A stretch of 64,000 nucleotides of DNA from Clostridia bacterium (lineage in GTDB: Bacteria > Bacillota > Clostridia > Lachnospirales > JAOARL01): the NCBI GenBank assembly GCA_025210555.1, contig JAOARL010000020.1:5265-69264 (forward strand). The letters are read 5' to 3'. This document shows positions 18,930 through 19,838 of the stretch, one piece after another (within the stretch, counting starts at the first letter, position 1; each line of letters starts with the position of its first letter). The position numbers and the translations under genes are program-made. Below the pieces are notes generated by a model that searched no databases, was not told where the DNA came from, and worked only from the letters and a program-made list of their open reading frames with translations.

Positions 18930-19394
18930 ATGGATGCAAAATTAATTGCTAAATGGTTTATATTTAGAAATGAACAAGATTTAGATGAAGAAAATATTGA
19001 GTGTATAACTAATTTAAAAATGCAAAAACTGCTTTATTATGCTCAAGGTGTATATCTTGCATATAAAGATAATGAGCTCTTTGGAAATGATATATATGCT
19101 TGGAATCATGGACCTGTTGTAAAAGAAGTTTATGATGAATATAAATCTTACGGTAGACAAGGAATTGATGTAGAAATATCAGAAGGTGAGAAAAGTGAAA
19201 TTTTAAAAGCAATAGGATTTAAAGAAGATTCCCTTGAAGTATTGGAAACGGTTTATAAGAATTATGCTAAGTACTCGGCTTGGCACTTAGTTGAAATGAC
19301 ACATAGCGAAAAACCATGGAAAGAGACTTATAAAGATGAGGTTATAAGTAAGCAGTTGATAAAAGAATATTTCAGAGAAGAAGTATTGGTTTAA
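18930..19394 (+). CDS. Panacea/DUF4065 (SocA/GepA-like) antitoxin-domain protein
   Basis: 154 aa; LKMQKLLYYAQGVYLAY...AWNHGPVVKEVY hallmark of DUF4065. Confidence 0.8.
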   Translation: MDAKLIAKWFIFRNEQDLDEENIECITNLKMQKLLYYAQGVYLAYKDNELFGNDIYAWNHGPVVKEVYDEYKSYGRQGIDVEISEGEKSEILKAIGFKEDSLEVLETVYKNYAKYSAWHLVEMTHSEKPWKETYKDEVISKQLIKEYFREEVLV

Positions 19395-19838
19395 TTGTCT
19401 GGTAGATTAAAGGTTAAAAAGGAAGAAAAAGGGAATTTTATAAAGTTAGATGAACTTAAGTATTTGAAATTTAATTTTAGTTTTATGACTACGAATAGTA
19501 ATTATGGGTTTGATAATGCAAAGTTTGTAGATGAACATAAGTCGCAGTTGTTAAGCAGAATATTTGAATTATCAAAGAATCCATATGCGGAAGTATGTTT
19601 GATGAGTAAAAACCAAGGTTTTGAATTTATTAAAGAGAATGATATGAAGTTTACATGTAAATATAAAGAAGAAGAGTTTTACAAAAGTGAGTTTAGAAAG
19701 AGGGCAAACAATAAATATTGCATAATGCGATTATATTCAAACAATAATCCTGCGTGTATAAGATGTATAGGTAAGGTTGTCAGTAATATATTTTATGTTA
19801 TGTTTATAAGCTTTGATCATGATAAGTTGTATAAATGA
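19395..19838 (+). CDS. unknown protein, candidate cognate toxin of the Panacea antitoxin
   Basis: 147 aa; TTG start (uncertain) 1 nt after upstream stop; no recognised domain; C-terminus IFYVMFISFDHDKLYK loosely RelE/ParE-like. Confidence 0.45.
   Translation: MSGRLKVKKEEKGNFIKLDELKYLKFNFSFMTTNSNYGFDNAKFVDEHKSQLLSRIFELSKNPYAEVCLMSKNQGFEFIKENDMKFTCKYKEEEFYKSEFRKRANNKYCIMRLYSNNNPACIRCIGKVVSNIFYVMFISFDHDKLYK

Follow-up and report, generated by a model that had tools for sequence, protein, structure and literature searches.

A Panacea-domain gene and its T1-type partner in an S-layer gene cluster of a Clostridia bacterium: a probable toxin-antitoxin module

Introduction

When a Panacea-domain (DUF4065) gene is followed directly by a gene without any recognisable motif, is that partner a new toxin? 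We address this question for two adjacent genes, gene 1 (panA) and gene 2 (panT-like), in a 64,000-nucleotide (nt) stretch of genomic DNA from a Clostridia bacterium (assembly GCA_025210555.1, contig JAOARL010000020.1, positions 5,265 to 69,264 of the forward strand). This whole stretch is referred to as the window, and positions are counted from its first base. A preliminary description of the window, made from the sequence alone, had read gene 1 as a Panacea-type antitoxin (PanA) and gene 2 as its cognate partner, a candidate new or poorly described toxin of the PanT type. Our analysis indicates that the two genes very probably constitute a PanA plus T1-type module, T1 being one of the 88 clusters into which predicted Panacea partners have been sorted (Kurata et al., 2022; PMC8832971).

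Kurata et al. (2022) report complexes between PanAs and their toxins, and in their view direct, type II neutralisation accounts best for the results, in preference to the ClpXP-adaptor mechanism of SocA. Direct neutralisation by a stand-alone Panacea domain was likewise shown by mutagenesis in the NetFlax study (PMC10440598).

Results

Gene 1 is a stand-alone Panacea protein with a conserved partner

The product of gene 1 matches the Pfam model SocA_Panacea (PF13274, DUF4065) with an E value of 1e-24 and a score of 88 bits (cutoff 25.7), has no further domain attached, and carries the GPV motif at residues 61-63. This motif is reported to be critical for neutralisation (Kurata et al., 2022) and is kept in 29 of 29 compared PanAs. 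The Panacea identity, which had been proposed from the motifs LKMQKLLYYAQG and AWNHGPVVKEVY, both of which we located in gene 1, is therefore upheld. Gene 1 also matches PHROG families 10390 and 1281 (E values of 1e-46 and 9e-42, respectively) and shares 41% identity with the Salmonella phage Emek PanA.

In deposited phage genomes, Panacea-domain genes can be labelled 'Cro/CI family transcriptional regulator'. We found this label at loci L001 (OQ240254.1, 3455-3916) and L028 (MN830252.1, 1183-1737), L numbers designating the related loci of this study. The former gene is by Pfam a PF13274 member without a helix-turn-helix domain, and the latter is identified solely as a tblastn relative of the window PanA.

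In all 34 related loci (23/23 and 11/11), the gene 2 family gene is immediately preceded, on the same strand, by a Panacea gene. These loci come from Lactobacillus gasseri-type prophages, a Latilactobacillus curvatus phage, metagenome-assembled genomes (MAGs) of Bacilli and Clostridia, Bacillus and Paenibacillus genomes, and 11 IMG/VR contigs. The two genes mostly overlap or are spaced by at most 3 nt; 33 of the 34 pairs lie inside the 100-nt limit used by Kurata et al. (2022), and the remaining pair (L016) has a gap of 160 nt. The flanking genes differ completely among loci, being S-layer genes here and terminase, lysin, helicases or transposase elsewhere, where the pair is found after a lysin gene, before the small terminase gene, between helicase genes or beside a Y1 transposase. 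The conserved unit therefore consists of the PanA and partner genes only. In phage Emek, the pair is placed between a DNA-transfer-protein gene and mnt. One setting, in a Bacilli MAG (L007, 1-8441), resembles a defence island, the pair being located between a DEAD/ResIII helicase on one side and an SLFN-g3 helicase and a DUF4238 protein on the other.

The two proteins have also diverged together: the identity matrices of PanAs and partners correlate with r = 0.84, a value that none of 2000 permutations reached. Among the PanAs nearest to gene 1, those of Salmonella, E. coli and Pseudomonas phages have T1-like partners, that of Lactobacillus phage JNU_P1 is paired with Doc, and those of Paenibacillus phage Tripp and of Helicobacter cinaedi prophages are paired with unrelated proteins. 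Such partner swapping among near PanAs matches the pattern described for Panacea. Taken together, all computable features by which PanAT pairs were recognised by Kurata et al. (2022) are found at this locus, namely a Panacea gene, a close conserved partner, a conserved neighbourhood limited to two genes and the GPV motif. Synteny, co-divergence and GPV conservation thus give good support to the preliminary view that gene 1 encodes an antitoxin of the PanA type and gene 2 the PanT-type partner that belongs to it.

Gene 2 belongs to the T1 superfamily

The gene 2 product (MCT4612603.1) matches no model of Pfam, NCBIfam or PADLOC, as is also the case for 71 members of its family, and the source names of family members all read 'hypothetical protein'. 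A word-index search returned two relatives only. These results would fit a gene that founds a previously unseen PanT family, a reading that we consider very improbable in view of more sensitive comparisons. More specifically, an exhaustive HMMER search retrieved 91 cluster representatives (50% identity) at E <= 1e-3, of which 39 reached E <= 1e-10. Almost all of the 91 are single-domain proteins of 130-165 amino acids. PHROG families 38762 and 8366 already exist, and gene 2 matches the former, which has no assigned function, with an E value of 9e-21.

The idea of a new family is refuted by homology to a published T1 member. Gene product 16 (gp16) of Salmonella phage vB_SemP_Emek (YP_006560566.1) is listed as PanT cluster T1 in Dataset S1 of Kurata et al. 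(2022). The gene 2 family alignment (A2) matches this protein with an hhalign probability of 98.5% and an E value of 2.5e-15 over 111 columns that include all family motifs, and a local hmmsearch gave an E value of 4e-18. The PanA partners of E. coli phage EC.P3 and of P. aeruginosa phage CF60a are likewise homologous to the gene 2 family (hhalign 98.4-98.7%), and Lactobacillus members of the family match both phrog_38762 and the Emek family, phrog_8366. On the strength of these matches, gene 2 is to be classed by homology within the T1 superfamily, as a divergent member from the Firmicutes, and not as a new PanT; its subfamily might fall in a sister cluster of T1 under the FlaGs clustering of the original authors. 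Its closest named relatives are WP_036061984.1 and WP_157456133.1. Listeria phage B025 gp28, which we had considered as another T1 example, is T9/MazF-like and unrelated to the gene 2 family; it serves as a control.

Of the two alternatives offered in the preliminary description, 'poorly described' is accordingly the one that holds, T1 having neither a Pfam model nor a detectable structure, while 'new' is contradicted by the relationship to Emek gp16. In the pairs table of Dataset S1 (Kurata et al., 2022), T1 rows fill the opening parts without a break, at least as far as part 4, and T3 is first encountered near part 13; from this long run, T1 is by far the largest PanT cluster. It spans many phyla.

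The closest published counterparts are the PanAT pairs with a T1 partner, such as Emek gp15/gp16 (YP_006560565.1/YP_006560566.1) and the Clostridium cadaveris pair WP_074844973.1/WP_074844970.1, in which, as in the window, a stand-alone Panacea gene comes first and a homologous partner follows immediately downstream or overlapping. T1 partners and gene 2 share the motifs FxFSF, LS, G-x-E, FR, IG and FY..D...Y. They differ in that gene 2 is just 17-20% or so identical to Proteobacterial T1 proteins, and that its Firmicute subfamily has an 'NNNP' loop insertion and a C-terminal His located before, not after, the conserved Tyr. The insertion and the relocated His are variation within the family and not a new architecture. 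Furthermore, many PanA:T1 examples are phage-borne, whereas the window pair is chromosomal and lies outside any prophage.

The pair has the layout of an operon

Both genes are real, because gene 2 has 91 homologous cluster representatives and the synteny is strictly conserved. The two open reading frames (Table 1) had been correctly delimited in the preliminary description, as had their junction: the TTG that opens gene 2 comes immediately after the TAA of gene 1, with a gap of 0 nt and no change of reading frame, so that gene 2 starts at the next base. We also found the two signals said to bracket the pair, its own promoter-like sequence, which sits 3' of the terminator of the preceding gene (18723-18753), and a strong terminator. 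Taken as a class, promoter-like sites show no enrichment in the AT-rich surroundings (12 compared to 10.4 expected); terminator-like sites are strongly enriched (3 compared to 0.1 expected from shuffles).

With a single TAA between two genes in the same frame (19392-19397), a fusion of PanA and partner by stop-codon readthrough is possible. The Paenibacillus oenotherae locus (L012, 2992-2997) has the same in-frame single-stop arrangement, while most other loci overlap out of frame; the arrangement is probably due to chance.

Table 1. Positions of the gene pair, its putative signals and other features of the window.
Feature	Position	Strand	Remarks
Gene 1 (panA)	18930-19394	+	ATG start, 154 amino acids; putative antitoxin or sensor
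Gene 2 (panT-like, T1 superfamily)	19395-19838	+	TTG start, 147 amino acids
Sigma-70-like promoter, TTGACT-18 nt-TATAAT	18859-18888	+	11/12 consensus matches; consensus match only
Ribosome-binding site AAAGGAGGTG	18915-18924	+	Strong; 7 nt before the gene 1 ATG; read from the sequence
Intrinsic terminator closing the operon	19857-19890	+	14-pair stem, 6-nt loop, T-rich tail; as an operon part delimited as 19857-19900
S-layer-homology (SLH) protein	10500-13337		Part of S-layer run 10500-30324
SLH protein	14048-15568		Part of S-layer run
S41/PDZ protease	15579-16979		In S-layer run
Big_5-only paralogue	16992-18740		In S-layer run
SLH protein	20020-21984		Part of S-layer run
SLH protein	22544-25732		Part of S-layer run
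IS110-family transposase (DEDD_Tnp_IS110 + Transposase_20)	27304-28500	+	In S-layer cluster, between the PanAT and PDC-M69 pairs
SLH protein	29128-30324		Part of S-layer run
HTH_3 + Peptidase_M78 (ImmA/IrrE-like) protein, then overlapping open reading frame	30442-32200	+	386 amino acids, then 220 amino acids
T-box leader	52371-52597	+	Rfam RF00230, 116.6 bits; sole Rfam match in the window above the gathering score

Conserved residues of gene 2 suggest an enzyme

Structure prediction with AlphaFold2, one of the checks proposed in the preliminary description, succeeded as far as the model itself is concerned. Run on 54 sequences, it gave a confident model of the gene 2 product (predicted local distance difference test, pLDDT, 84; predicted template-modelling score, pTM, 0.77), while a run on 2 sequences was unusable (pLDDT 45). 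In the model, a Lys-rich N-terminal tail of low confidence (approximately residues 1-20) is present, and the order of elements is strand 1, two helices, strand 2, a two-helix insertion and three more strands. The predicted alpha/beta core is thus beta-alpha-alpha-beta-beta-beta-beta.

Conserved positions are F26-N-F-S-F, S60, K72, G75, E77, R112, R123, D139 (Ser in the window protein), Y146 and a C-terminal His (H142 here). Among 137 distinct members, Glu77 is invariant, and conservation is 98% for Arg123, 96% for Tyr146, 91% for Lys72 and Gly75, 90% for Ser60 and Asp139, and 87% for Arg112. Within the C-terminal stretch (residues 139-147 of gene 2, positions 19809-19835), the His is found two residues after the Tyr in 100 of the 137 members, three or four residues before it in 21, including the window protein (DHDKLYK), and at both places in 6; only three intact family sequences lack it. 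A His that changes position yet is almost never lost suggests catalysis, and may be a relocated catalytic residue. Judged from the alignment, this His together with Glu77, Arg112, Arg123, Asp139 and Tyr146 suggests an enzyme, possibly an RNase.

Glu, Arg, Arg and His/Tyr follow one another as they do in the catalytic sets of YoeB and of barnase-type microbial RNases. Like gene 2, the YoeB/RelE-type interferases, barnase and RNase Sa are small alpha/beta proteins with this residue order. Unlike them, gene 2 carries about 25 inserted residues between its second and third strands, is extended at the N-terminus by about 45 residues, and shows no significant sequence, profile or Foldseek similarity to them.

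The deaminase toxin SsdA (7jtu, 9c63) recurred as top match in PDB searches (E values of 0.13-0.7, profile positions 58-112). We rejected it because the match is not significant and the family has none of the conserved Cys/His zinc-binding motifs of deaminases.

The pair lies in an S-layer gene cluster

The pair is chromosomal, within a cluster of S-layer/cell-envelope genes that is not a prophage, and is inserted between two Big_5 paralogues. It had been described as an island between two SLH genes, which is right for the downstream neighbour (SLH and Big_5 domains) and not for the upstream one, where Big_5 is the only match and SLH is missing at E <= 0.001. Flanking direct repeats, as an insertion scar, were sought around the pair and none were found, and the guanine-plus-cytosine content gives no island signal at the locus.

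Approximately 11 kb downstream of the PanAT pair, the two open reading frames at 30442-32200 match the PADLOC candidate defence system PDC-M69, with components A and B fused (E values of 2e-19 and 1e-44) and component C (5e-34). Weaker matches to RmrA (Rosmer) and CapP are found at the same place.

Discussion

We regard the locus as best explained by a self-contained PanA-PanT module, its two genes co-transcribed and coupled in translation, of the type most often catalogued; we hold this explanation to be probable. With similar confidence, and by analogy to characterised pairs, we take gene 2 to encode a toxin neutralised by PanA. Its product would be a growth-inhibiting enzyme, to which the Panacea domain of gene 1 would bind directly, as other stand-alone PanAs do, keeping the toxin inactive. 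A trigger such as phage infection might then release or activate the toxin, which might cleave RNA and so inhibit translation. A role in abortive infection or superinfection exclusion would fit the frequent location of such pairs in accessory-gene ('moron') slots of prophages.

Mechanistic precedents for gene 1 are the stand-alone Panacea antitoxins of Bartonella choladocola PanA:PanT(D11) and Gelidibacter mesophilus PanA:toxFtsL(D9) (PMC10440598), whose toxins, membrane or cell-division proteins, have no relationship to gene 2. The Panacea domain is also common to gene 1 and SocA, the founding Panacea protein, which belongs to the Caulobacter type VI toxin-antitoxin (TA) system SocAB. The two systems differ in that gene 1 scores 76 bits against the NCBIfam SocA equivalog model NF047745, under its 190-bit cutoff, and in that gene 2 is T1-like and not SocB, which sits in PanT cluster T10 (Kurata et al., 2022). 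As to gene order, Panacea pairs are toxin-first in 78% of cases in NetFlax (PMC10440598), compared to mostly antitoxin-first in the 2022 data (PMC8832971).

Several results weigh against a neutralised toxin of this kind. Neither the gene 1 nor the gene 2 protein matches any PADLOC defence model. Foldseek placed the gene 2 model in no known fold, the best E values being 3.7 in PDB and 0.9 in BFVD, so that this half of the structural check came out negative, and no significant match came from searching PDB sequences with gene 2 alone, with the A2 profile, with a broadened A5 profile or with Emek gp16. In hhalign comparisons the probability was at most 3% for RelE, YoeB, YafQ, HigB, MqsR and ParE and equally for MazF, HicA, YafO, barnase, RNase Sa and RNase T1, with sensitivity limited by the use of single target sequences. 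The 'mRNase' label that T1 carries in SI (supporting information) Table S1 is also given to a MazF-like cluster, and the portions of Dataset S1 covered here hold no entry with HHpred support for it (Kurata et al., 2022). Of the three T1 proteins tested in E. coli in that study, those of E. coli MOD1 and Emek were non-toxic, and the toxic one, from Clostridium cadaveris (pair WP_074844973.1/WP_074844970.1), was not rescued by its own PanA. Finally, Bulleidia extructa W1219 is listed with 0 predicted TA systems in NetFlax (PMC10440598), yet has a PanA:T1 pair in the 2022 data (PMC8832971). Because this T1-bearing genome is listed with none, T1 appears to have been left out of the NetFlax core network. 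An equation of NetFlax node D3 (AarT) with T1 was considered and is probably wrong, as NetFlax reports no TA system for the T1-bearing genome.

How far these results bear on the chemistry of gene 2 depends on its relation to known RNases. The preliminary description had called its C-terminus (IFYVMFISFDHDKLYK, which is indeed the end of the protein) vaguely RelE/ParE-like, a resemblance for which Pfam, NCBIfam, PDB profiles, Foldseek and hhalign give no statistical support. Gene 2 could still be a true, very divergent member of the RelE/ParE (YoeB/HigB-like) mRNA-interferase superfamily: the predicted order of one strand, two helices and four strands resembles the RelE/YoeB fold, and hhalign, weak though its local matches are, places RelE, YoeB, HigB and ParE alike on the region of strands 3 and 4. 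It is also in keeping with this idea that T1 members bear the label 'mRNase', and that clusters T14, T28 and T76 are RelE/HigB-like (Kurata et al., 2022). We nevertheless think such membership improbable, given that no RelE/ParE model of Pfam or NCBIfam matches gene 2 or any of the 71 members, that the hhalign probabilities are so low, and that a Foldseek search of 350,542 PDB chains, many RelE/ParE structures among them, gave nothing better than an E value of 3.7 and a template-modelling score of 0.2. As regards function rather than ancestry, RNA cleavage, inhibiting translation, would be the most likely chemistry, and we consider gene 2 a possible RNase, at somewhat less than even odds. This reading is kept as an inference because the likeness to YoeB and the RNases has no statistical support.

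A more far-reaching objection is that the two genes form a conserved module without being a classical TA system. The partner would be non-toxic alone, and the Panacea domain would act as a sensor rather than a neutraliser; the partner might then be, for instance, an effector that binds nucleic acids, a regulatory protein, or an abortive-infection effector active only on a signal from phage. The toxicity and rescue data cited above speak for it, as do the apparent absence of T1 from the core TA network and the sensory role of Panacea favoured by the NetFlax authors (PMC10440598). The Lys-rich, low-confidence N-terminal tail of gene 2 would suit such a partner, and so would the prophage accessory slots (after lysin, before the small terminase, beside mnt in Emek) and the defence-island-like helicase neighbourhood. 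We consider this alternative rather unlikely. One T1 member is toxic; the invariant Glu, the two near-invariant Arg and the relocating His resemble an active site and not a binding surface; and operons in which the antitoxin gene comes first and the genes overlap are a typical feature of type II TA systems.

Returning to the PanA-PanT module as the favoured explanation, the locus alone is one further example of the catalogued PanAT architecture. Its wider interest lies in T1, the most abundant Panacea partner, which has no Pfam model, detectable structure or recorded remote homology, and for which the toxicity data are contradictory. T1 might represent an enzyme fold not recognised before, an effector that resembles a ribonuclease or targets nucleic acids in another way, with a Glu/Arg/Arg/His active site whose His has shifted in evolution and with Panacea-dependent activation during phage infection. 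This proposal is doubtful at present; if true, a conditional effector in place of a constitutive toxin would account for the lack of toxicity of most members in E. coli. The pattern of conserved residues (Glu, two Arg and the shifting His) provides concrete targets for mutagenesis, and the strict co-inheritance with PanA strengthens the case for studying the pair together. Finding the function of T1 would close the largest gap still left in the Panacea network and would help to decide whether Panacea is a neutraliser or a sensor of signals.
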